Positions 33,755-64,000 are shown, counted from the stretch's first letter. The stretch: DNA of 64,000 nt from Armatimonadota bacterium (GCA_039811685.1 JBDHZC010000003.1:224001-288000); one strand, 5' to 3'. Program-made: numbers and translations. Notes: generated from the sequence alone by a model not told the origin.

Positions 33755-33830
33755 CTACAACTCAACTTGGGCATTATAGCCTGAAATTCTGAGATAACCG
33801 GCCATCGTCGGCCAAATGACGAAGGAGAAG

Positions 33831-34700
33831 ATGAGAATGAACAGAGCAGTTTATGCCTGCATCGCAGCCTGTGCGCTGGCTGTTGTGCCGGTGCTGTCTC
33901 ATGCCGCGCCGGTATTTGGCACGATCAATAGTTCCAGCTCTCTGCCACCTGCAGGGTGGAGTGAGTACGGCGCGAGTGGAAATCCGAGCCCGGGCGTTAT
34001 TGCCAATCCTGACTATACGAAGCCCGGAGAAAGCAGCTCCAGTGAGGGCGCGATGTCCTATCTGGGCGAGGATGTTCTGAGCATCGAGCGCGCCAAAACA
34101 AAGGGTCCACACGGGTATCAGCAGTCGCTCTATGACCCTGATACCAACACCAACTATACTCACGTGACCCTTGAGTCAGAGTTTCGCGTCCGCTTCACCA
34201 ACAACACGGTGGGGAACCGGGGCGATGCCATTCTGGAGCTCGGTGTGCTTGGCGGCCCGACACTTGCCATTACCGCCAATGACAAAGACTATCCGTCCAT
34301 TGCCGACCATTACTGGTTCCGCCTGATTCAATACAGCACCAGTGCCGGTGTTGTCTCGACTCAGGAGATTATGCCTTTCCCACTCGTACCCGGAAGCACT
34401 CCGACTTCTGGCGAAAGCTACCAGGAGTCCAACTTTCATAGTGCAAAAATTGAGCTGAATGGCCCCCATGCGCTCGTATGGTGGGATGGCACGCTCATTC
34501 TGGACAGGGTTTTCACCGAGGGTCTGAACACTGCCGGTGGAAACGTCGCCTTTGGCGTAGGAACGCCCGTCAACAACGTGGGTGGCGCCAACGGCACAAA
34601 CTACTTCCGCAGTGTCACTCTGGTTCCTGAGCCGGGCAGTATGCTCACGCTGGGTGCAGGGGTGCTGGGCCTTTTGAGCGCACTGCGACGCAGACGCTGA
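33831..34700 (+). CDS. PEP-CTERM sorted surface protein with beta-rich domain
   Basis: Signal peptide; C-terminal VPEPGS, TM and RRRR; SD AAGGAG. Confidence 0.93.
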   Translation: MRMNRAVYACIAACALAVVPVLSHAAPVFGTINSSSSLPPAGWSEYGASGNPSPGVIANPDYTKPGESSSSEGAMSYLGEDVLSIERAKTKGPHGYQQSLYDPDTNTNYTHVTLESEFRVRFTNNTVGNRGDAILELGVLGGPTLAITANDKDYPSIADHYWFRLIQYSTSAGVVSTQEIMPFPLVPGSTPTSGESYQESNFHSAKIELNGPHALVWWDGTLILDRVFTEGLNTAGGNVAFGVGTPVNNVGGANGTNYFRSVTLVPEPGSMLTLGAGVLGLLSALRRRR

Positions 34701-52477: not shown

Positions 52478-52837
52478 TTATGGCAGGGTGTGCCCTGTCA
52501 CTGTGCACGTTGGGTCGGTATCAACCGTTCCGATGGTGTAGGTGCCGCCGGCCGGGCAGGCTGGCATAGCAGAGCCTTTGATGTAGGTGCCCAGCAGGTT
52601 GGCGGATGTCACGCTGGCAGTGCCTGCCAGGCGGTTGTCCATTGCGTACTGCTGCTTGGCAGAATCAATCTGCTTCAAGTTGGCGATACAGCTCTTGGTG
52701 CGAGAGGAATCCCTCGCTTGAATGAAGTTCGGGACCGCGATGGCCAGAAGGATGCCGATAATCAGCACCACGATCATGATTTCGATAAGGGTGAACCCCT
52801 CTCGAGACTTGCGAAGCCGCTTAGCGAATGAAGTCAT
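52478..52837 (-). CDS. Type IV major pilin, copy C
   Basis: G|FTLIEIMIVVLIIGILLAIAVPNF; 105-aa mature chain. Confidence 0.95.
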   Translation of the reverse strand: MTSFAKRLRKSREGFTLIEIMIVVLIIGILLAIAVPNFIQARDSSRTKSCIANLKQIDSAKQQYAMDNRLAGTASVTSANLLGTYIKGSAMPACPAGGTYTIGTVDTDPTCTVTGHTLP

Positions 52838-53021
52838 CTACTAGTCCTTTGTGATGATTCCCGTCCCTCTTGACAAGGTGGTGGAGAAACGGGTGTTGCG
52901 ACCGCCACAACCAGGGCATGGCGGTCTGGTCTCATTACCAGTTGTTCCATGCGAATATCTGTTGATGGCACAGCTTTTTTGCCTGCTTTGCATCTGTGCC
53001 GCTGTCCTCATGCGTGGCGCC

Positions 53022-53054
53022 AAAAAAAAGCGGCCCGCGCGTAGCGAGCCGCTT
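53022..53054 (-). terminator. Terminator after pilin B
   Basis: AAGCGGCTCGC..GCGGGCCGCTT plus T run. Confidence 0.85.
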
Positions 53055-53085
53055 CCTCCAAAAAAAGGAACAGATCGAGAACCGC

Positions 53086-53442
53086 TTACGGCAGGGCGTG
53101 CCCTGTCACTGTGCAGGTGGGATCGGTATCGACAGTTCCGATAGTGTAGGTGCCGCCACCCGGGCAGGCGGGCATAGCAGTGCCTTTGATGTAGGTGCCC
53201 AGCAGGTTGGCGGATGTGACGCTGGCAGTGCCTGCCAGGCGGTTGTCCATTGCGTACTGTTGCTTCGCCGAGTCAATCTGCTTCAAGTTGGCGATGCAGC
53301 TCTTTGTGCGAGAGGAGTCCCTGGCCTGAATGAAGTTCGGGACGGCGATAGCCAGAAGGATGCCGATAATCAGCACCACAATCATGATTTCGATCAGCGT
53401 AAAGCCTTTGCGGGACTTCCTGATACGGTTGAGACTCAACAT
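53086..53442 (-). CDS. Type IV major pilin, copy B
   Basis: Mature chain differs from copy C at 3 of 105 residues; SD AGGAG; alternative start 53451. Confidence 0.95.
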   Translation of the reverse strand: MLSLNRIRKSRKGFTLIEIMIVVLIIGILLAIAVPNFIQARDSSRTKSCIANLKQIDSAKQQYAMDNRLAGTASVTSANLLGTYIKGTAMPACPGGGTYTIGTVDTDPTCTVTGHALP

Positions 53443-53677
53443 CTTTTCCATTCTCCTGATAGGGTTTGACCACGCCTTCAGATAGGGCAAGCCCGCAGGA
53501 CAGGGAAGAACGATAACCAGCTTTGAGTGCAGGTGAAGATTGTCCGTTGCGGTCTTGGCGGTGTCTGTTGTGGTCGAGAGCCTGGCGCTAACTGGCCCAG
53601 GCGAAGTACAGTCAAGGGATTTGTTCCGCTCAGAAGCACATCCGACGACTGTGATAAATGCGGGCTTTTCGGGACAC

Positions 53678-53706
53678 AAAAAACCAGCGCGCCAAAGGCG
53701 CGCTGG
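53678..53706 (-). terminator. Terminator after pilin A
   Basis: CCAGCGCGCC-TTT-GGCGCGCTGG plus TTTTTT. Confidence 0.9.
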
Positions 53707-53741
53707 CAAAGACAAGTATTCTAAGGTGGACGCCTCTACCG

Positions 53742-54113
53742 CTACGGCAGGGTGTGCCCGGTGATTGTACAGGTCGGGTCAGTGTCCACGGTGCCTATGG
53801 TATAGGTGCCGCCGGCCGGGCACGCAGGCATCGCACTGCCCTTAATATAGGTGCCCAGCAAGTTCGCGCCGGTTACGGAAGCCGTTCCTGAAAGGTTGTT
53901 GTCCATCGCGTACTGGTGCTTTGCGCCGTCAATCTGCTTGAGGTTAGCGATGCAGCTCTTGGTGCGCGAAGAGTCTCTTGCCTGGATGAAGTTCGGGACC
54001 GCAATGGCTAGAAGGATGCCGATAATCAGCACCACAATCATAATCTCGATGAGCGTAAAGCCTTTTCGAGATTGCGTAATCCTCTGACGGAATCTGTTCT
54101 GAAGGAAAAGCAT
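53742..54113 (-). CDS. Type IV major pilin, copy A
   Basis: Mature chain differs from copy C at 6 of 105 residues; SD GGGAG. Confidence 0.95.
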   Translation of the reverse strand: MLFLQNRFRQRITQSRKGFTLIEIMIVVLIIGILLAIAVPNFIQARDSSRTKSCIANLKQIDGAKHQYAMDNNLSGTASVTGANLLGTYIKGSAMPACPAGGTYTIGTVDTDPTCTITGHTLP

Positions 54114-54400
54114 AGATAAGGTCTCCCGGTGCGTGGTGGGTGGAGGAGAAGCCGCCGTACCACTGTGACAGCTGTAGCTGTCCGGTGAGAGCGCAGGCAT
54201 CTCCGCCAGGCGATTTTGTCAGGCTGTCAGGTCTACTAGTGCCGGACCGGCCCAAGTGTGTTGTATCTACTACTTTCCGTGTCAGAATGTTCATCGATCC
54301 CCGTAGTTGTGCGGGAAGATTGGCCAGACTTCACAATCCTGGTGTAGGCAGCCTCCTTACAAATCCGGCTCCAACCTGATCTGGATGGCCCTTTGGGGTC

Positions 54401-57757: not shown

Positions 57758-60514
57758 CTATCCGGCGTGCTTCCGCAAGAGTTGTCTGAGCACGTACTGC
57801 AGGATGCCGCCATGCCGGTAGTACTCTATCTCCTGGGGAGTATCAATTCGCACCGTCGCTGCAAAGGTGGTCTCCACATCCAGCAGTTTCGCCCGTACGT
57901 TCACGGTACGCCCGCCCTCAAAGCCGCTTTTCAGCTTGTCTGAGAGACCTTCTATCGAGAACTCCTCGTGGCCGGTCAACTTCAGAGACTCGGCGCTCTC
58001 TCCAGGAAGAAACTGCAGAGGCAGGACTCCCATTCCGACAAGATTTGAGCGGTGAATGCGCTCGTAGCTTTCAGCAATGACAGCTTTCACGCCCTGCAGA
58101 TAGGGGCCCTTTGCCGCCCAGTCCCGGCTTGATCCAGACCCGTACTCCTTGCCTGCCAGCACCACCAGAGGCGTTCCACTGGCCTGATATTTCACGGCAG
58201 CGTCGAAGATTGACATAACTTCGCCCGTGGGGAGATATGTTGTAAAGCCGCCTTCGGTACCGGGCGCTATCCGGTTGCGAATCCGTATGTTGGCAAACGT
58301 CCCGCGCACCATAACCTCGTGGTTTCCGCGCCTCGATCCGTACGAGTTGAACCGCGCCGGGGAGACACCGTGCTCACGAAGGTATTTTCCGGCGGGAGAG
58401 TCAGCCTTGATACTGCCGGCCGGAGAGATGTGATCTGTCGTGACGCTGTCACCAAGCCACGCCAGCACTCTGGCGCCTGCGATGTCCGGCACACTTTCCG
58501 GAGCTTCCGGACTCATATTCTCAAAGTAAGGCGGGTGCTTGATGTAGGTCGAGTCCGGATTCCAGGCGAACAGCGCGCCCTCCGGAGCGTCTATAGCGTT
58601 CCAGTGCTCATCCCCTTCAAAGACCTCTGCGTAGTTCTGTCTGAACATATCGACCTTCAAAGCCTGCTCTATCGCTTCGCTGACTTCAGCTTGCGTGGGC
58701 CAGATATGGCGCAGATACACGGGCTCTCCGTCTGAACCGGTTCCCAGAGGCTCGTTGTACAGATCTACGTCCATCCGCCCGGTCAGCGCGTAGGCCACCA
58801 CCAGCGGCGGAGACATCAGGTAATTGGCGCGCACTTCAGGGTTTATCCGGCCTTCAAAGTTGCGGTTGCCGGACAGCACGCTGACCGCCACGAGCCTGCC
58901 TTCTTCGATTCCTTCGACAACGGGTTCGGGAAGAGGACCGGAATTGCCAATACACGTTGTGCATCCGTATCCGACTGTGTTAAATCTCAGCTTGTTGAGA
59001 TAAGGCGTCAACCCGGCCTGGTCGAGATAGCGTGTCACAACTCGAGACCCTGGCGCCAGAGAGGTCTTAACCCAAGGCTTGGTGTCCAGACCACGCTCTA
59101 CGGCCTTCTTCGCCAGAAGGCCAGCAGCCACCATGACCGATGGATTTGATGTGTTGGTGCAGCTTGTTATTGCCGCAATCACAATACTCCCGTGGTGTAG
59201 CGGGAAAGACTCACCGTTCATCGTCACCGTGACAGTCTCGGGTTTCGCTGTGGCAGCGACGGCCGGACCGGGTTGAGCCGCAGTGCCGGGCAGGGGTTCC
59301 AGGGACTCCGCAGGCCCAAGCAGCCCGGGCAGAGCCTCGTGAAACGCTGTGGCGGCGTTAGAGAGGCTGATGCGGTCCTGTGGCCGGCGCGGTCCGGCGA
59401 TGCTTGGCTCAACGGTGTTGAGATCGAGCTCCAGAGTGTCTGAGTAATCTGCCTTGGGAGAGTCCGGCTCGTGGAAGAGACCTTGCTCCTTCATATAGGT
59501 CTCCACGAGCGTGACCTGCTCTTCTGACCTTCCGGAGAAGCGAAGATAGCGCAGGCTCTCCTTGTCAATTGGGAAAATGCCACACGTGGCCCCGTACTCC
59601 GGCGCCATGTTTGCAATGGTCGCCCGATCCGCCAACGGCAGATGCATTAAACCCGGGCCGTAGAACTCCACAAACTTTCCGACAACCCCCTTCTTGCGCA
59701 GCATCTCGGTCACAGTCAGTACCAGATCTGTAGCTGTTGCGCCTTCAGGCAGCGCGTTCACCAGCCGGAATCCCACGACCTGAGGAATCAGCATTGAGAG
59801 AGGTTGTCCGAGCATGGCGGCCTCAGCCTCAATACCTCCGACACCCCACCCGAGTACACCCAGACCGTTCACCATCGTCGTGTGTGAGTCTGTTCCAAGC
59901 AATGTGTCTGGGTAGGCCAGCCTCTCCTCACCGTCTGAAGTGAAGACGACCCGCGCAAGGTATTCCAGATTGACCTGATGGACAATTCCCGTGCTTGGCG
60001 GCACGGCTCTGAAGTTCTTGAACGTGCCCTGACCCCACTTGAGAAACGCATACCGCTCCACGTTGCGTTCAAACTCAAGCTCCACGTTCAAAGCCAGAGC
60101 AGCATCCGAGCCGTACGCATCCACCTGGACGGAGTGATCAATGACAAGTTCGACCGGCTGGAGAGGGTTGATTTTGCTCGGGTCGCCTCCGAGGCGGGCC
60201 ATGGCGTCGCGCATAGCGGCCAGGTCCACCACGCACGGCACACCCGTAAAATCCTGAAGGAGCACACGCGCGGGAGTGAAGGCGATTTCCCCGTGAGGCA
60301 TCTGCGATGCGTCCCACGTAGCCAGCGCGCGGATGTCTTCAGGAGTCACGCTGAGGCCGTTTTCAGTTCTGAGCAGATTCTCAAGAAGAATGCGCAGGGA
60401 GTAGGGCAGTCTCGAAAGTGAGCCGGCCTCGTTCTCCAGCGCCTGAAGTCGGTAAATCGTGTAGTCCACGCCGCTGGATCGCAGTGTGCTTTTGGCTCCG
60501 AAGCTGTTATTCAA
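57758..60514 (-). CDS. acnA: Aconitate hydratase A
   Basis: [56 protein letters not shown] start after GGGAGGAG. Confidence 0.97.
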
Positions 60515-60806
60515 TAGTTTCTCCTCCCAGGCCAAGGGACCGGCAAGTAGTCCTCTGGTCAGTCGCTGTGTCTTCGATTATGGCATGTCTGGCTACGCCC
60601 GGCGCAAGCGCTGGCGCTGCGCTGCACCTGTGCAGATATTCTGCCCGGCGCCGCAGATACGCACTCTTCATTTAACCTTATCGCCCACCGTGATCTGCGA
60701 GCTGCGCTCAGATACAAAACGGTTATGCTCAAAGAGGACGAGACCATTCAGCCTGATGTTTCACGCGAGCCGGCCAGGCGCGGCTGTGTCGCTCTGGAGA
60801 TGGCGG

Positions 60807-60833
60807 GGAACCGTTTTCGTTCTGTCGCAGTTG
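60807..60833 (+). promoter_or_regulatory. Possible SigH/SigR-like ECF promoter of msrA
   Basis: GGAAC-N18-GTTG. Confidence 0.4.
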
Positions 60834-60910
60834 GTTTCAATGCGGCGGCGCATGAAGTTATTTGCAGTGTTTGACAGCGCGTGACGCAAGTCGCGCAGGA
60901 GGAATTCTCA

Positions 60911-61381
60911 TTGGAAACAGCGATCTTCGCGGCAGGTTGCTTCTGGGGTGTCGAGGAGGCTTTTCGATCGGTGCGCGGGGTGGAAAACGTAACGGTCGGC
61001 TACTGCGGCGGTCACACCTCCAGTCCCACCTATAAACAAGTGTGCTCGGGAGAGACCGGCCATGCCGAGGTGGCGCGGGTCGAGTTTGATCCCTCAGTCG
61101 TCAGCTATGGTGAGCTGCTGGAGGTGTTCTGGAAAATCCATGATCCCACTCAGTTGAACCGGCAGGGCCCGGACTTCGGGACGCAGTACAGATCAGCAGT
61201 TTTCTATACTGAGCCAGAGCAGCGCGACATTGCCGAAGAGTCCAAGCGTCAACTCCAGGCCAGCGGAAAATTCGCAAGGCCCGTCGTGACGGAAATCACA
61301 CCGGCTTCAACCTTCTGGCCGGCGGAAGACTATCATCAGCAGTATTTGTCCAAAAGAGGCGTCTCAGGCTGCCATCTCTGA
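60911..61381 (+). CDS. msrA: Peptide-methionine (S)-S-oxide reductase
   Basis: GCFWG, TGHAE, RQGPDFGTQYRS, AEDYHQQY; TTG start after AGGAGG. Confidence 0.97.
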   Translation: METAIFAAGCFWGVEEAFRSVRGVENVTVGYCGGHTSSPTYKQVCSGETGHAEVARVEFDPSVVSYGELLEVFWKIHDPTQLNRQGPDFGTQYRSAVFYTEPEQRDIAEESKRQLQASGKFARPVVTEITPASTFWPAEDYHQQYLSKRGVSGCHL

Positions 61382-61424
61382 ATTGCGGCGAGAAAAATTC
61401 GCGCTTTTGGATTGGGCCCGCTGT

Positions 61425-61441
61425 TTGGCACGCTTTGTGCA
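61425..61441 (+). promoter_or_regulatory. sigma54-type -24/-12 promoter
   Basis: TTGGCACGCTTTGTGCA with GG (61427-8) and GC (61439-40) exactly 10 nt apart. Confidence 0.55.
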
Positions 61442-61451
61442 CTTAATATCT

Positions 61452-61531
61452 GCGGAAACCAAAACATCTTTTTCTCCTTCTGTCAGACTTATTTACAGTC
61501 GGCCCGCCGCAAGGCGGGCTTTTTCTTTTTT
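61452..61531 (+). ncRNA. Candidate small RNA A (anti-SD seed)
   Basis: sigma54-like promoter, seed AACATCTTTTTCTCCTTCT, GACT/AGTC mini-hairpin and a strong terminator; no credible plus-strand ORF. Confidence 0.5.
61501..61531 (+). terminator. Strong intrinsic terminator
   Basis: GGCCCGCC-GCAA-GGCGGGCT followed by TTTTCTTTTTT. Confidence 0.9.
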
Positions 61532-61673
61532 CCTGAGCCCATACTCTGACAGAAAGGTGCGCTCTTCCCCGGCCGTCGCATCCTCAACATTCGTATTCTA
61601 AGCAGCAAAAGCGCACGGGGCTTTCTGCATCATAGTTCTTGCTGAATGTAGTGTGCTCATTCAGCCGCACGTC

Positions 61674-61707
61674 GCCCAGGCCTCTCAATCCGAGAGCTGG
61701 GCTTTTT
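61674..61707 (+). terminator. Second plus-strand terminator in an ORF-free interval
   Basis: GCCCAG-GC-CTCTC..GAGAG-CTGGGC plus TTTTT. Confidence 0.7.
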
Positions 61708-61967
61708 CAGAACACTGTTGGCTGACCCAGAGGAGGTATCTGGATTTGGGCGGTGTTCTTGAAGTGCTCGTGTGGTGCGCTTGACGGTTGTTTGCAGATT
61801 GCCTGGCCTGCGGCCGGCAGAATAACTCAGCAGAGGGCCTGAGTCCTGGCCAAAAGCGCGCCAAGAGCTCAGGTTTGAGTGTCGCACAGGACGGAGGCGT
61901 AGAACTGTGACGTCTCATGCACCTGCAGCGCGGCACGTTAGTGGGAAAAGCGGAGTTTGAAAAAGAA

Positions 61968-62041
61968 TCGGGGCGACAGGATTCGAACCTGCGACCACCG
62001 GTACCCCATACCGGTACGCTACCAAGCTGCGCCACGCCCCG
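61968..62041 (-). tRNA. tRNA-Pro(GGG), CCA not encoded
   Basis: Cloverleaf CGGGGCG/CGCCCCG, D-loop AGCTTGGTA, anticodon arm CCGGT-AT GGG GT-ACCGG, T-arm GCAGG-TTCGAAT-CCTGT. Confidence 0.97.
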
Positions 62042-62141
62042 ACGGACCTTTCGCCTCAGGAATCTGCTCTCCATTTTGCCAGCCTGAGCTTTGCACGAGG
62101 CTGGCCTTGAAGGCAAGAACTACTGAGTGCGAAGCGCCCTT

Positions 62142-62171
62142 ATTATACAGCACCAGCCAGAGAGTTGTCAG
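62142..62171 (-). promoter_or_regulatory. sigma70-type promoter of tRNA-Pro
   Basis: CTGACA-N18-TATAAT on the minus strand. Confidence 0.6.
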
Positions 62172-62489
62172 CAGCCTGGGGAAACATTGGTGGAAGGCTC
62201 TTGCAGAGAGGAACCCGTACACACTTTCGGGCGAAAAGCCACAAACTATAGCTGAGCCGCTCCTGCGCTACGTCCATGACCTTCGCCCGAAACCAGCGTT
62301 GCACGCCTTCTAGCCAGGCGCGCAACAAAAACTCGACTGTCACTTGGAACAACCGTATAAGAGACTGATTGGTTCCCGTTTCTGGCTCCAGGTTTTTGCT
62401 GATTTGCGGGCGTGTCACCTACAGGAATCTTTCAGGACGGAGGTACTGTTCCGATATAATGGATTGTGCGCTAAGCACGCGAGTTCGCT

Positions 62490-64000
62490 ATGGATCAACA
62501 CGCACTACAAGTTCTGGAGTTCGGAAAAGTCTTGCAACAACTCGCAGATCATACTGCGACAGAAGTCGGAGCTGCGCTTGCGCTTGTCCTTGCGCCAGCC
62601 GGCAATCTTGGGGAAGTACAGCTTCGTCAGACGCAGACCGCTGAGGCCCGGCAACTTCTGGATGACTTCGGTGGAATGCCACTGGGCGGCGCTCACAATA
62701 TCCTCCCGCATCTCGAAAAGGCTGTGCGTGCGGGATGCCTGGATGGGCGGGAGTTGCTTGACATCGCCGAGACTCTCACGGCTTCAGAGCGGCTCAGTGC
62801 CTTTCTGCGCAAACACTCACTCCTCACTCCCGAGCTCTCAACGCTTGCGAGCAGCCTCGCCAGCCTGCCAGATGTCTCCAAATCCATTGCGGAAGCCATT
62901 GATCAGGCGGCTGAAGTGCGCGACTCAGCAAGCTCTAAGCTTGCGTCCGTGCGGCGGGAGATGCGCACTGTCGCTGGTCGTGTGCAGGAGAAGCTCAATG
63001 GTATCCTGCAGGGCACGGCGACCCGCGAAGCTTTGCAGGACCCCGTCATCGTTTCCCGCCACGGGCGCTGGTGCGTACCTGTTCGCTCTTCCCACAAATC
63101 TGTGGTCCCCGGTGTCGTGCATGACGCCAGCGCCAGCGGCGCTACCCTTTTTGTTGAGCCTCAGTCCGTCGTGGAGCTTGGCAATCGCCTTCGCCAGCTC
63201 GAAGCCGAGGAACAGGACGAAATCGAGCGCATCCTGCGCGCGCTAACGGCAAAGGTCGCCCAAAGCGCGGACGATCTGCGAGTCAATGTAAACGTCATCG
63301 CCAGTCTCGACCTCGCTAACGCCAGCGCGCTGCTCGCTGAAGCGCACAGAGCCGTTCGTCCGTCTATCCACCCGGGAGCGTTTCTCAATTTCCGCCAGGC
63401 GAGGCATCCACTTTTGAAGGGCGACGTCGTTCCCATCGATGTCCGCGTCGGCTCGGATTTTCAAGGCCTGCTCATTACAGGCCCTAACACTGGCGGAAAG
63501 ACCGTAACGCTCAAAACAGTGGGTTTGCTGACCCTCATGGCGCAGGCTGGACTGCAGATTCCCGCCGCTGAGGGAAGTCAGTGCGGAGTCTTTGCCGATA
63601 TTTTTGCGGATATCGGCGATGAACAGAGCATTGAGCAGTCCCTTTCCACCTTTTCCGGACACGTCCGCAACATCATCCGCACACTGCAGCGGATTGAGCC
63701 AGGCAGTCTGGTTTTGTTTGATGAGCTTGGCTCGGGTACGGATCCGGCCGAAGGCGCTGCCCTGGCCTCTGCCGTGCTTCGCTGGCTCGCTGACAAAGAT
63801 GTGTGCATTGTGGCGACAAGTCATTACGGAGAGCTGAAAAGCTTTGCCTACGCAACGCCTGGTTTCGAGAATGCCTCCGTTGAGTTTGACAAAGAGAGTC
63901 TGCGCCCGACCTACCGTCTGTTGACAGGCGTTCCCGGGGCAAGCCACGCCCTGCATATCGCCGGCAAACTGGGTATGCCCGCCGAGGTTCTGGAAGATGC
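62490..64000 (+). CDS. mutS2: MutS2 family protein, 5' part (runs off the window, so absent from the ORF track)
   Basis: MDQHALQVLEFGKV start; HDASASGATLFVEP; ITGPNTGGKTVTLK, DIGDEQSIEQSLSTFSGH, DELGSGTDPAEGAALA. Confidence 0.95.
   Translation, partial: MDQHALQVLEFGKVLQQLADHTATEVGAALALVLAPAGNLGEVQLRQTQTAEARQLLDDFGGMPLGGAHNILPHLEKAVRAGCLDGRELLDIAETLTASERLSAFLRKHSLLTPELSTLASSLASLPDVSKSIAEAIDQAAEVRDSASSKLASVRREMRTVAGRVQEKLNGILQGTATREALQDPVIVSRHGRWCVPVRSSHKSVVPGVVHDASASGATLFVEPQSVVELGNRLRQLEAEEQDEIERILRALTAKVAQSADDLRVNVNVIASLDLANASALLAEAHRAVRPSIHPGAFLNFRQARHPLLKGDVVPIDVRVGSDFQGLLITGPNTGGKTVTLKTVGLLTLMAQAGLQIPAAEGSQCGVFADIFADIGDEQSIEQSLSTFSGHVRNIIRTLQRIEPGSLVLFDELGSGTDPAEGAALASAVLRWLADKDVCIVATSHYGELKSFAYATPGFENASVEFDKESLRPTYRLLTGVPGASHALHIAGKLGMPAEVLED

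Follow-up and report, generated by a model that had tools for sequence, protein, structure and literature searches.

What is encoded in the short intergenic stretch 3' of msrA in the genome of an Armatimonadota bacterium (GCA_039811685.1), and which genes might it regulate? The stretch occupies positions 61425-61531 of a 64,000-nucleotide (nt) segment of DNA (JBDHZC010000003.1:224001-288000; hereafter, the window) and carries the sequence TGGCACG-CTTT-GTGCA at 61426-61441. A first-pass annotation, made from the sequence of the window, had proposed that this locus is a candidate sigma-54-dependent small RNA (sRNA) with a seed complementary to the Shine-Dalgarno (SD) sequence and the AUG start codon of mRNAs. 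We followed up this proposal with searches for further copies in the genome, comparisons among related genomes, and a genome-wide analysis of complementary start sites. The results, which come from comparisons of DNA sequence, suggest that the locus is one copy of a multi-copy, sigma-54-dependent, base-pairing sRNA that probably represses a subset of the mRNAs for PEP-CTERM proteins, the substrates of exosortase.

Anatomy of the Locus

The sequence TGGCACGCTTTGTGCA at 61426-61441 on the plus strand has the arrangement of a sigma-54-type promoter (TGGCACG-N4-TTGCW), with GG at -24 (61427-28, within TGGCACG) and GC at -12 (61439-40, within GTGCA) positioned 10 nt apart and with 4 nt separating the two blocks. 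Placement of C61440 at -12 predicts a transcription start at G61452, and an RNA extending from there to the T-run of the terminator would be ~75-80 nt in length (61452-61531, plus strand). ATG, GTG, and TTG are all absent from these 80 nt.

The predicted RNA has a folding energy of -22.4 kcal/mol (z = -3.0), which 2 of 200 shuffled sequences equaled, and the fold places the seed in an open 20-nt loop that is followed by a small hairpin and then by the terminator. The single-stranded seed CATCTTTTTCTCCTTCTGTCA (61465-61485) is unpaired in this fold and also in the folds of members from the same family of genomes (f1). Within it, the seed core ATCTTTTTCTCCTTC (61466-61480), which is nearly invariant in class-wide alignments, is the complement of GAAGGAGAAAAAGATG, that is, of an SD sequence, a spacer, and an AUG. 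The 20-nt seed pattern occurs a single time in the window, where 0.01 occurrences are expected. The small hairpin (GACT...AGTC; 61486-61500) comprises 4 bp, and at this position most of the paralogs and orthologs in f1 read GTCA-N7-TGAC. The Rho-independent terminator (61501-61531) consists of the stem-loop GGCCCGCC-GCAA-GGCGGGCT followed by TTTTTCTTTTTT; a terminator scan describes the stem-loop (61501-61520) as an 8-pair stem, including seven G-C pairs, that is closed by the 4-nt loop GCAA and has TTTTTCTTTTT directly 3' of it.

The promoter with its predicted start, the lack of an ATG-initiated open reading frame (ORF) downstream of it, the single-stranded stretch AACATCTTTTTCTCCTTCT (61463-61481) complementary to the SD and AUG, and the GCAA-loop terminator with its T-run are all as the first-pass annotation had described them. 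Of the features by which sRNA genes are recognized, the locus has a promoter of its own, an intrinsic terminator, an intergenic position, and no coding potential.

Paralogs and Distribution of the RNA Family

A BLAST search with 61380-61560 as the query, run on the genome and 40 relatives, revealed that the part from promoter to seed is found again elsewhere in this genome and is present in most of the relatives. When an alignment of eight family members was used as an nhmmer query against the genome, four full copies (E-values of 1e-22 to 3e-26) and one weaker tandem copy were identified on four contigs. The full copies comprise the window copy (contig C3) and those at C5:99003-99112, C2:618417-618528, and C1:768625-768732; the fifth, degenerate copy (C1:768492-768594, minus strand; E-value of 5e-7) is the immediate downstream neighbor of the C1 copy, with which it forms a tandem pair. 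Each of the full copies has TGGCAC-N5-TTGCA (GTGCA in the window copy), then ~12 nt, and then GGAAACCAAA..ATCTTTTTCTCCTTCTGTCA, and 3' of the seed each has a short hairpin followed by a G+C-rich hairpin of unrelated sequence and a T-run. They are 76-85 nt long and share this architecture at unlinked loci. In the degenerate copy the seed is altered (ATCTTTTCTCCTTTTGTCA) and the -24/-12 spacing is one base short, while the terminator is retained. These observations suggest that 61426-61531 is a stand-alone gene and one of four functional paralogs that are accompanied by one decaying tandem copy.

The first-pass annotation had allowed that the terminator could equally just close msrA. Neither msrA nor a tRNA gene was detected within ~1.5 kb at 21 other family-member loci, and no co-directional gene was found 3' of the terminator at any of the four copies in this genome; for these reasons the hairpin is best regarded as the terminator of the RNA itself, whatever else it may do for msrA. 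The lack of a co-directional downstream gene at the four copies also led us to reject a reading of the element as a leader or attenuator. Separately, a seed-like stretch, CTCTTTTTCTCCTTCATC, was noted 3' of a hairpin at C7:141095-141120 (plus strand). It is not preceded by a sigma-54 promoter; a sigma-54-like promoter is positioned ~80 nt downstream of it and points toward a PEP-CTERM gene at a distance of 500 nt.

A search for the promoter-plus-seed pattern over 185,579 species genomes matched 21 stretches, 12 of which are titled Armatimonadota or Armatimonadetes and 9 merely 'bacterium'. A sequence-only covariance model (R1; cut-off of E<=1e-6) yielded 86 matches distributed over 40 of the 53 class genomes (28 of the 38 high-quality genomes), with 1-5 matches per genome; tandem groups of two or three copies at a spacing of 150-350 nt are frequent. 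Among 151 genomes sampled from the phylum, full-length matches were obtained in 11 genomes, all of which belong to the same class; the 137 genomes outside the class returned no full-length match, and partial matches to the promoter part only were found in 8 of them. The RNA family thus appears, as far as sampled, to be confined to one class of Armatimonadota, and it appears to be uncatalogued: no Rfam 15 family other than tRNA-Pro reached its gathering score in the window, and no family passed in an E-value scan of six family loci, which returned one chance match to Thr_leader and sub-threshold matches to RF00519.

The promoter, seed, and terminator that are kept in the four paralogs are likewise kept in the 40 genomes of the class. 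When 32 members are aligned, the conserved positions cluster in TTGGCACG-N4-TTGCA and in (A)CATCTTTTTCTCCTTC, and the spacer between them is variable; the aligned rows were chosen by a pattern that requires both promoter and seed, although a pattern-free BLAST search had shown the same distribution. The -24/-12 element, mostly of the above form, is at a constant distance from the seed in all 32 members, and the anti-AUG triplet CAU is positioned ahead of the CU tract in 29 of the 32. A terminator-like hairpin with a T-run occurs 32-81 nt 3' of the seed in 29 of 30 distinct members (the exception enters masked N), and the sequences of these hairpins are unrelated to each other. Three size classes are apparent, of ~60-65 nt, ~75-85 nt (the f1 members, including those of this genome), and ~110-125 nt. 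The longest members, from families f2 and f4, have an extra hairpin and a second conserved motif, AAAGTGTTGTGGC, just 3' of the seed that may be a second interaction site.

Three related genomes also have a conserved stretch that includes the complement of the sRNA seed of their own genus (AGAAGGAGAAAAGGAGAAAC). These stretches were identified at L089 (genome G001, C1:~3042137), L070 (G003), and L071 (G005). They have no ORF 3' of them, but rather a G+C hairpin and a T-run, and they could be decoys or sponge partners of the sRNA.

Sigma-54 and Its Activator

The first-pass annotation had left the presence of rpoN to be confirmed, and an rpoN gene (126.7 bits) was identified in the genome. Across the class, rpoN scored above its cut-off in 46 of 53 genomes. 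It is present in all 40 genomes that carry the sRNA, and none of the seven genomes without rpoN has the sRNA; these seven fall in ~5 genera and do not represent seven independent events. Exosortase genes were likewise detected in 40 of 40 sRNA carriers, and the five genomes without exosortase also lack both rpoN and the sRNA. Six genomes encode both rpoN and an exosortase yet do not carry the sRNA. The conservation of the element together with its confinement to rpoN-bearing genomes supports the proposal of an sRNA, and we consider it very likely that this is a real sigma-54-driven sRNA family. With respect to rpoN copy number, two paralogs are encoded in most f2 and f4 genomes and in several f3 genomes, and one is encoded in this genome and the rest of f1.

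A single true enhancer-binding protein was detected in the genome (PF00158, 235 bits vs 33 bits for the next match). Its gene (G000 C1:498022-499221; L046:1057-2256) comes after that of an AtoS-like histidine kinase and encodes 399 amino acids (aa) comprising a receiver, an AAA+ domain, and its lid. Pfam identified no DNA-binding helix-turn-helix (HTH) domain in the protein, which ends where AtoC/NtrC-type profiles start their HTH. It falls below every NCBIfam equivalog cut-off, including that of PrsR (TIGR02915; 386.9 vs 502.6 bits), to which the match stops at approximately position 374 of 445 in the profile. Since the activator lacks a DNA-binding domain, activation of the entire sigma-54 regulon would proceed without enhancer binding.

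Predicted Targets in the Genome

To identify candidate targets, 2714 ORFs of at least 100 aa were called greedily with starts picked by SD score, and 55 of these were marked as PEP-CTERM by a regular expression (three were also checked with hidden Markov models; the other 52 rest on the regular expression). For each ORF, we recorded the longest contiguous match of the region from -35 to +6 around the start to TGACAGAAGGAGAAAAAGAT. A match of at least 9 nt was identified in 18 of 55 PEP-CTERM genes vs 14 of 2659 others (Fisher test, 6e-24), and a match of at least 12 nt was found in five PEP-CTERM genes vs none of the others. Similarly, GAAGGAGAA is present at the start of 12 PEP-CTERM genes vs three others. 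The enrichment was maintained in several controls. Among genes with an AAGGAG SD, 12 of 26 PEP-CTERM genes had a match of at least 10 nt vs 4 of 148 others (p of 1e-8). Only 4 of 408 non-PEP genes with a signal-peptide-like N-terminus had a match of at least 9 nt. When GGAG was held fixed and the flanks were shuffled, a mean of 3.0 PEP-CTERM genes had matches of at least 9 nt, and none of 300 shuffles reached 18.

A ranking by duplex energy with the whole 32-nt 5' part of the RNA also placed PEP-CTERM genes high, with four among the first 10 and 19 among the first 100 (Mann-Whitney U test, 1e-9), although this ranking is noisy in that many internal purine-rich starts score well, and the contiguous match is the cleaner measure. 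A scan of the genome with 9-mers of the seed complement returned 300 sites, the best of which, after the sRNA genes themselves, are start regions such as GAGAAGGAGAAAAAGATG (C1:180138; -32.9 kcal/mol). The leading PEP-CTERM candidates have their leaders at C1:180138, C12:2231, C9:29747, and C6:177621. Among 22 sites hand-picked from the 60 best of these 300, 18 had an ORF, and 17 of the 18 ORFs end in a VPEP...RRRK tail; because these sites were selected by eye, the list was replaced by the unbiased counts given above. The three targets that were checked have a PEP-CTERM domain above cut-off in both TIGR02595 and PF07589. The genome also encodes three exosortases and an hfq gene. Collectively, a conserved and accessible seed is matched by complementary sites at start regions, as is typical of base-pairing sRNAs.

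The best candidate target within the window is a PEP-CTERM gene at 33816-34700 (plus strand) that has a 9-nt seed match in its start region GACGAAGGAGAAGATGAGAATG (-21.8 kcal/mol) and whose protein scores above cut-off in both TIGR02595 (18.8 bits) and PF07589 (23.8 bits). The target that the first-pass annotation had put forward is the mRNA of pilin B, a prepilin-type N-terminal methylation protein encoded at 53086-53442 on the minus strand (PF07963, 37.2 bits). The proposed site, AGGAGA-ATGG-AAAAGATGTT, is indeed present (minus strand, ~53440-53460) and pairs over 6 + 10 nt around a 4-nt bulge, but its duplex energy of -22.5 kcal/mol is only comparable to that of start sites ranked about 45th in the genome-wide list. 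Pilin B might be a target but is not favored, and PEP-CTERM genes appear to be far better candidates. Three prepilin paralogs of ~118-125 aa, nearly identical from the N-methylation motif onward, are arranged in tandem at 52478-54200 (minus strand), with pilin B in the middle.

A second group of PEP-CTERM genes may be linked to sigma-54 more directly. Matches to the strict motif TGGCAC-N5-TTGCW number 14 across the genome, three of which are sRNA copies. A relaxed version of the motif was detected within 400 nt upstream of 4 of 55 PEP-CTERM genes vs 5 of 2659 others; one of these five is an sRNA promoter and another precedes a response-regulator gene. Since the seed matches of the four PEP-CTERM genes are all 6 nt or shorter, the directly promoted and the seed-matched sets do not overlap. 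Two further strict sites, found by eye, precede PEP-CTERM genes (C5:128195 and C7:141698). The sigma-54-linked PEP-CTERM genes have long leaders of ~100-500 nt, and one of them (start at C9:5104) has two sigma-54-like promoters upstream, at C9:4674 and C9:4838 (plus strand), which are 164 nt apart. A response-regulator gene (start at 547848) has a strict motif 144 nt ahead of it, at C1:547704 (plus strand), which suggests a possible regulatory cascade.

Predicted Targets in Relatives

In the five other f1 genomes, 26 matches to RGAAGGAGAAAA were identified, 10 of which are sRNA genes and 16 of which are in other places. Eight of these 16 precede an ORF of at least 100 aa, and five of the eight ORFs are PEP-CTERM genes (four by regular expression, together with L086, which failed the regular expression and whose VPEP tail was recognized by eye). 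The remaining three comprise a probable ortholog without the tail, a prepilin gene (G005), and an ORF that runs off its locus. A PEP-CTERM protein of ~490 aa (C6:177621 in this genome) has homologs with 30-50% identity in the other two f1 genera, and its gene has kept a seed-matching start region in all three genera. In one of these genera (g2), the five U of this genome correspond to four U in both sRNA copies, and the ~490-aa target has four A, which is a small hint of co-variation.

The perfect 15-nt site AGGAGAAAAAGATGA occurs six times in relatives, and four of these sites are in sRNA-bearing genomes of another family. Three of the four precede PEP-CTERM genes, although one genus contributes two of these three, as orthologs of each other, and the remaining gene is frameshifted in the assembly. 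The other perfect sites precede a gene for a 91-aa secreted protein and, in a genome without the sRNA, genes for an SLH-type protein and a membrane protein. As judged from these comparisons, the PEP-CTERM link appears solid in f1, partial in f3, and unshown in f4.

Neighboring Genes and RNA Data

The gene upstream of the element is msrA (60881-61381, plus strand; PF01625, 228.6 bits). A weak hairpin at 61388-61402 (GCGAGAAAAATTCGC, then GCTTTTGG) lies directly 3' of the msrA stop codon and could be the terminator of msrA itself, thereby insulating the promoter of the sRNA. On the downstream side, the nearest gene is tRNA-Pro(GGG), at 61967-62042 on the opposite (minus) strand.

Thirteen sequencing runs that are recorded as RNA contain 5-20% of the sampled words. 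Across 60500-62500, four sets of metatranscriptome contigs cover parts of msrA and 61679-62042 and do not cover 61304-61638; these sets are of low depth and of library types that usually lose small RNAs. Contigs from two of the studies (61679-62031 and 61756-61970) cover tRNA-Pro and ~290 nt beyond it that lack a convincing ORF. The stretch at 61679-62042 may represent a tRNA-linked transcript or another non-coding RNA.

Evaluation of Alternative Explanations

While we consider repression of PEP-CTERM mRNAs by a sigma-54-dependent sRNA to be the best reading of this locus, several observations weigh against it. At the level of the locus, the start of the RNA at G61452 is predicted from the -12 spacing alone, and the promoter of the window copy reads GTGCA rather than TTGCA. 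On the scale of the window by itself, the promoter motif does not exceed chance expectation, as TGGCAC-N5-KTGCW has one match where 0.25 are expected and 20 of 100 shuffled windows have at least one match; the significance that we assign to the promoter derives from its conservation in paralogs and relatives. The anti-AUG triplet that the first-pass annotation had described is kept in most family members but is missing from two of the four copies in this genome, which have UAU instead of CAU. The genomes that were compared are related and thus non-independent, such that the co-occurrence counts overstate the support. At the level of targets, the gene calls are crude (greedy ORFs, SD-picked starts, and PEP-CTERM assignments by regular expression), and part of the enrichment reflects the style of the ribosome-binding site (RBS), because the SD sequences of PEP-CTERM genes are stronger on average (-8.3 vs -6.4 kcal/mol). 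Outside of f1, matches of 9 nt were found in 3 of 33 analyzed PEP-CTERM genes of genome G007, none of which was longer, and none of 11 PEP-CTERM genes of G018 reached 9 nt, with the variant seed of the G018 RNA itself not scored separately (50 regions were fetched from these two genomes, and six without an ORF were dropped). Likewise, a 12-nt search of five genomes from other families returned seven matches, five of which are sRNA genes and two of which are elsewhere.

We lean only slightly toward PEP-CTERM mRNAs as the main targets. A real, sigma-54-driven sRNA might instead act on other mRNAs for exported proteins (prepilins, SLH, or porin-like proteins) or on any mRNA with a GAAGGAG-type SD, in which case the enrichment at PEP-CTERM genes would reflect an RBS habit specific to the f1 lineage. 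The short matches in G007 and G018 are as this explanation would have it, as are the perfect 15-nt sites ahead of the secreted, SLH-type, and membrane protein genes. The same is true of prepilin-type genes, which provide the strongest non-PEP match in this genome (11 nt), one match in G005, and the pilin B duplex. Yet the enrichment survives both conditioning on AAGGAG and comparison to signal-peptide-like controls, an orthologous PEP-CTERM gene retains its site over three genera, three of the four perfect sites in sRNA carriers from another family lie at PEP-CTERM genes, and the sRNA never occurs without exosortase. We regard an action mainly on other targets as rather unlikely. It is improbable that the RNA acts by sequestration, for example by serving as a decoy for the anti-SD tail of 16S rRNA, by sponging a different RNA, or by binding a regulator of translation. 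The seed does resemble an anti-SD sequence, and the terminator-ended stretches kept in G001, G003, and G005 could represent a partner RNA, but no repeated protein-binding motif is evident, many start sites match the seed, and the conserved stretch is a single contiguous, unpaired sequence that reaches past the SD into the spacer and AUG, as for pairing with mRNAs.

Two further explanations dispense with an sRNA and are less plausible again. If the sigma-54-like motif were a chance occurrence in the 3' region of msrA, then the hairpin would be the msrA terminator; the frequency of the motif in shuffled windows agrees with this, and the hairpin, 120 nt 3' of the msrA stop codon, could also end msrA transcripts. 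The recurrence of the unit of promoter, seed, and terminator at three more unlinked loci and in 40 of the 53 genomes of the class, with msrA near none of the 21 other loci, makes this explanation very improbable. The conserved element could also be read on the minus strand as the RBS and start of an ORF at 61336-61467 encoding 43 aa (AGGAGAAAAAGATG), given that a perfect SD, a spacer, and an ATG are followed by an open frame. This reading was rejected and is scarcely credible, since the ATG is not conserved (it is missing in two of the four copies in this genome) and the conservation stops ~14 codons into the frame, where it coincides with the -24/-12 boxes of the plus strand. The terminators also fit the plus-strand reading, and in the window copy the minus-strand frame enters msrA.

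A Putative Model and Its Significance

From the anatomy, conservation, and complementarity of the family, we infer a mechanism in which sigma-54 RNA polymerase would transcribe the sRNA from a canonical -24/-12 promoter following activation by the sole enhancer-binding protein of the genome (a receiver and AAA+ domain and no DNA-binding domain), which is encoded alongside a histidine kinase. The resulting RNA would comprise an unstructured 5' part that includes the near-invariant seed (C)AUCUUUUUCUCCUUC, with at least one hairpin and then an intrinsic terminator 3' of it. Pairing of the seed with the region GAAGGAGAAAAAGAUG, spanning the SD, spacer, and AUG of target mRNAs, would block ribosome binding and would probably be assisted by Hfq. 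The best predicted targets, both in this genome and in f1, are a subset (~1/3) of the PEP-CTERM genes for exosortase substrates; other PEP-CTERM genes lack a seed match and are themselves preceded by putative sigma-54-like promoters. Since one set of PEP-CTERM genes has sigma-54 promoters and another set is seed-matched, one signal would turn on one set and silence the other. As a tentative and more speculative extension, a single two-component system whose activator lacks a DNA-binding domain might flip the exosortase-sorted coat of the cell, transcribing one PEP-CTERM set and silencing ~18 genes via 4-5 sRNAs, with the AGAAGGAGAAAAGGAGAAAC-type stretches perhaps acting as decoys.

Armatimonadota are common in soils, sludge, and biofilms. 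To our knowledge, no regulatory RNA has been described for this phylum, and full-text searches of the literature, with subscription journals outside of their coverage, revealed no sRNA in Armatimonadetes or tied to PEP-CTERM genes. The family offers a testable regulon with one sigma factor, one activator, 4-5 sRNAs, and defined start sites, and it suggests that PEP-CTERM/exosortase surface proteins are also controlled after transcription. If the model is true, the PEP-CTERM/exosortase system would have its first RNA-level regulator, and the phylum would gain its first described sRNA regulon.

Comparison to Known Systems

Among characterized sRNAs, Qrr1-5 of Vibrio are transcribed from sigma-54 promoters under an NtrC-type response regulator, are present in redundant copies, pair at translation starts through a conserved single-stranded seed, end in an intrinsic terminator, and occur in genomes with hfq. 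The Armatimonadota RNA resembles them in its sigma-54 promoter, the NtrC-type regulator, the multiple copies, the single-stranded seed, the terminator, and the hfq-bearing genome. However, the two differ in phylum and have no sequence or covariance-model similarity (the Qrr model had no match at E<=1 on the family loci), the activator in Armatimonadota lacks a DNA-binding domain, and the predicted targets are mRNAs of surface proteins rather than that of a master regulator. The only Rfam family with sub-threshold similarity is the alpha-proteobacterial MmgR/suhB family (RF00519), of which MmgR is NtrC-dependent. Both RNAs are short and terminator-ended with a CU-rich anti-SD stretch, but scores of 22.3-26.9 bits against a gathering score of 41, obtained on the copies of three relatives and not on the window copy, indicate that the Armatimonadota RNA is not a member.

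With regard to the regulon, Haft et al. (2006; PMC1569441) tie sigma-54 and PrsK/PrsR/PrsT to PEP-CTERM genes, with motifs in Proteobacteria only, and describe no RNA regulator. A study of Aquincola reports RpoN-dependent expression of pepA and implicates proteobacterial PEP-CTERM proteins in floc and biofilm formation (PMC9850573), and in Desulfovibrio a plasmid-borne regulator is reported to bind PEP-CTERM genes. The system examined here is like the Prs regulon in that sigma-54 and a response-regulator activator are tied to PEP-CTERM and exosortase genes and in that sigma-54-like promoters precede some PEP-CTERM genes. It is unlike the Prs regulon in having 4-5 sRNA genes that are complementary to other PEP-CTERM start sites, and its activator is unlike PrsR, which comprises a receiver, a sigma-54 AAA+ domain, and a Fis-type HTH, in that it scores below the PrsR cut-off and has no Fis-type HTH.

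The CiaR-controlled csRNAs (ccn) of streptococci, which belong to the Firmicutes, are likewise multi-copy RNAs with a conserved stretch complementary to the SD and AUG, and they are transcribed from a sigma-70 promoter with a CiaR site. The Armatimonadota RNA shares with them the multiple copies and the complementarity to the SD and AUG, whereas the promoter type and phylum differ and the sequences are not related. The mechanism, a sigma-54-driven, multi-copy anti-SD sRNA, is therefore of a familiar kind, while the RNA family and its predicted regulon are new.

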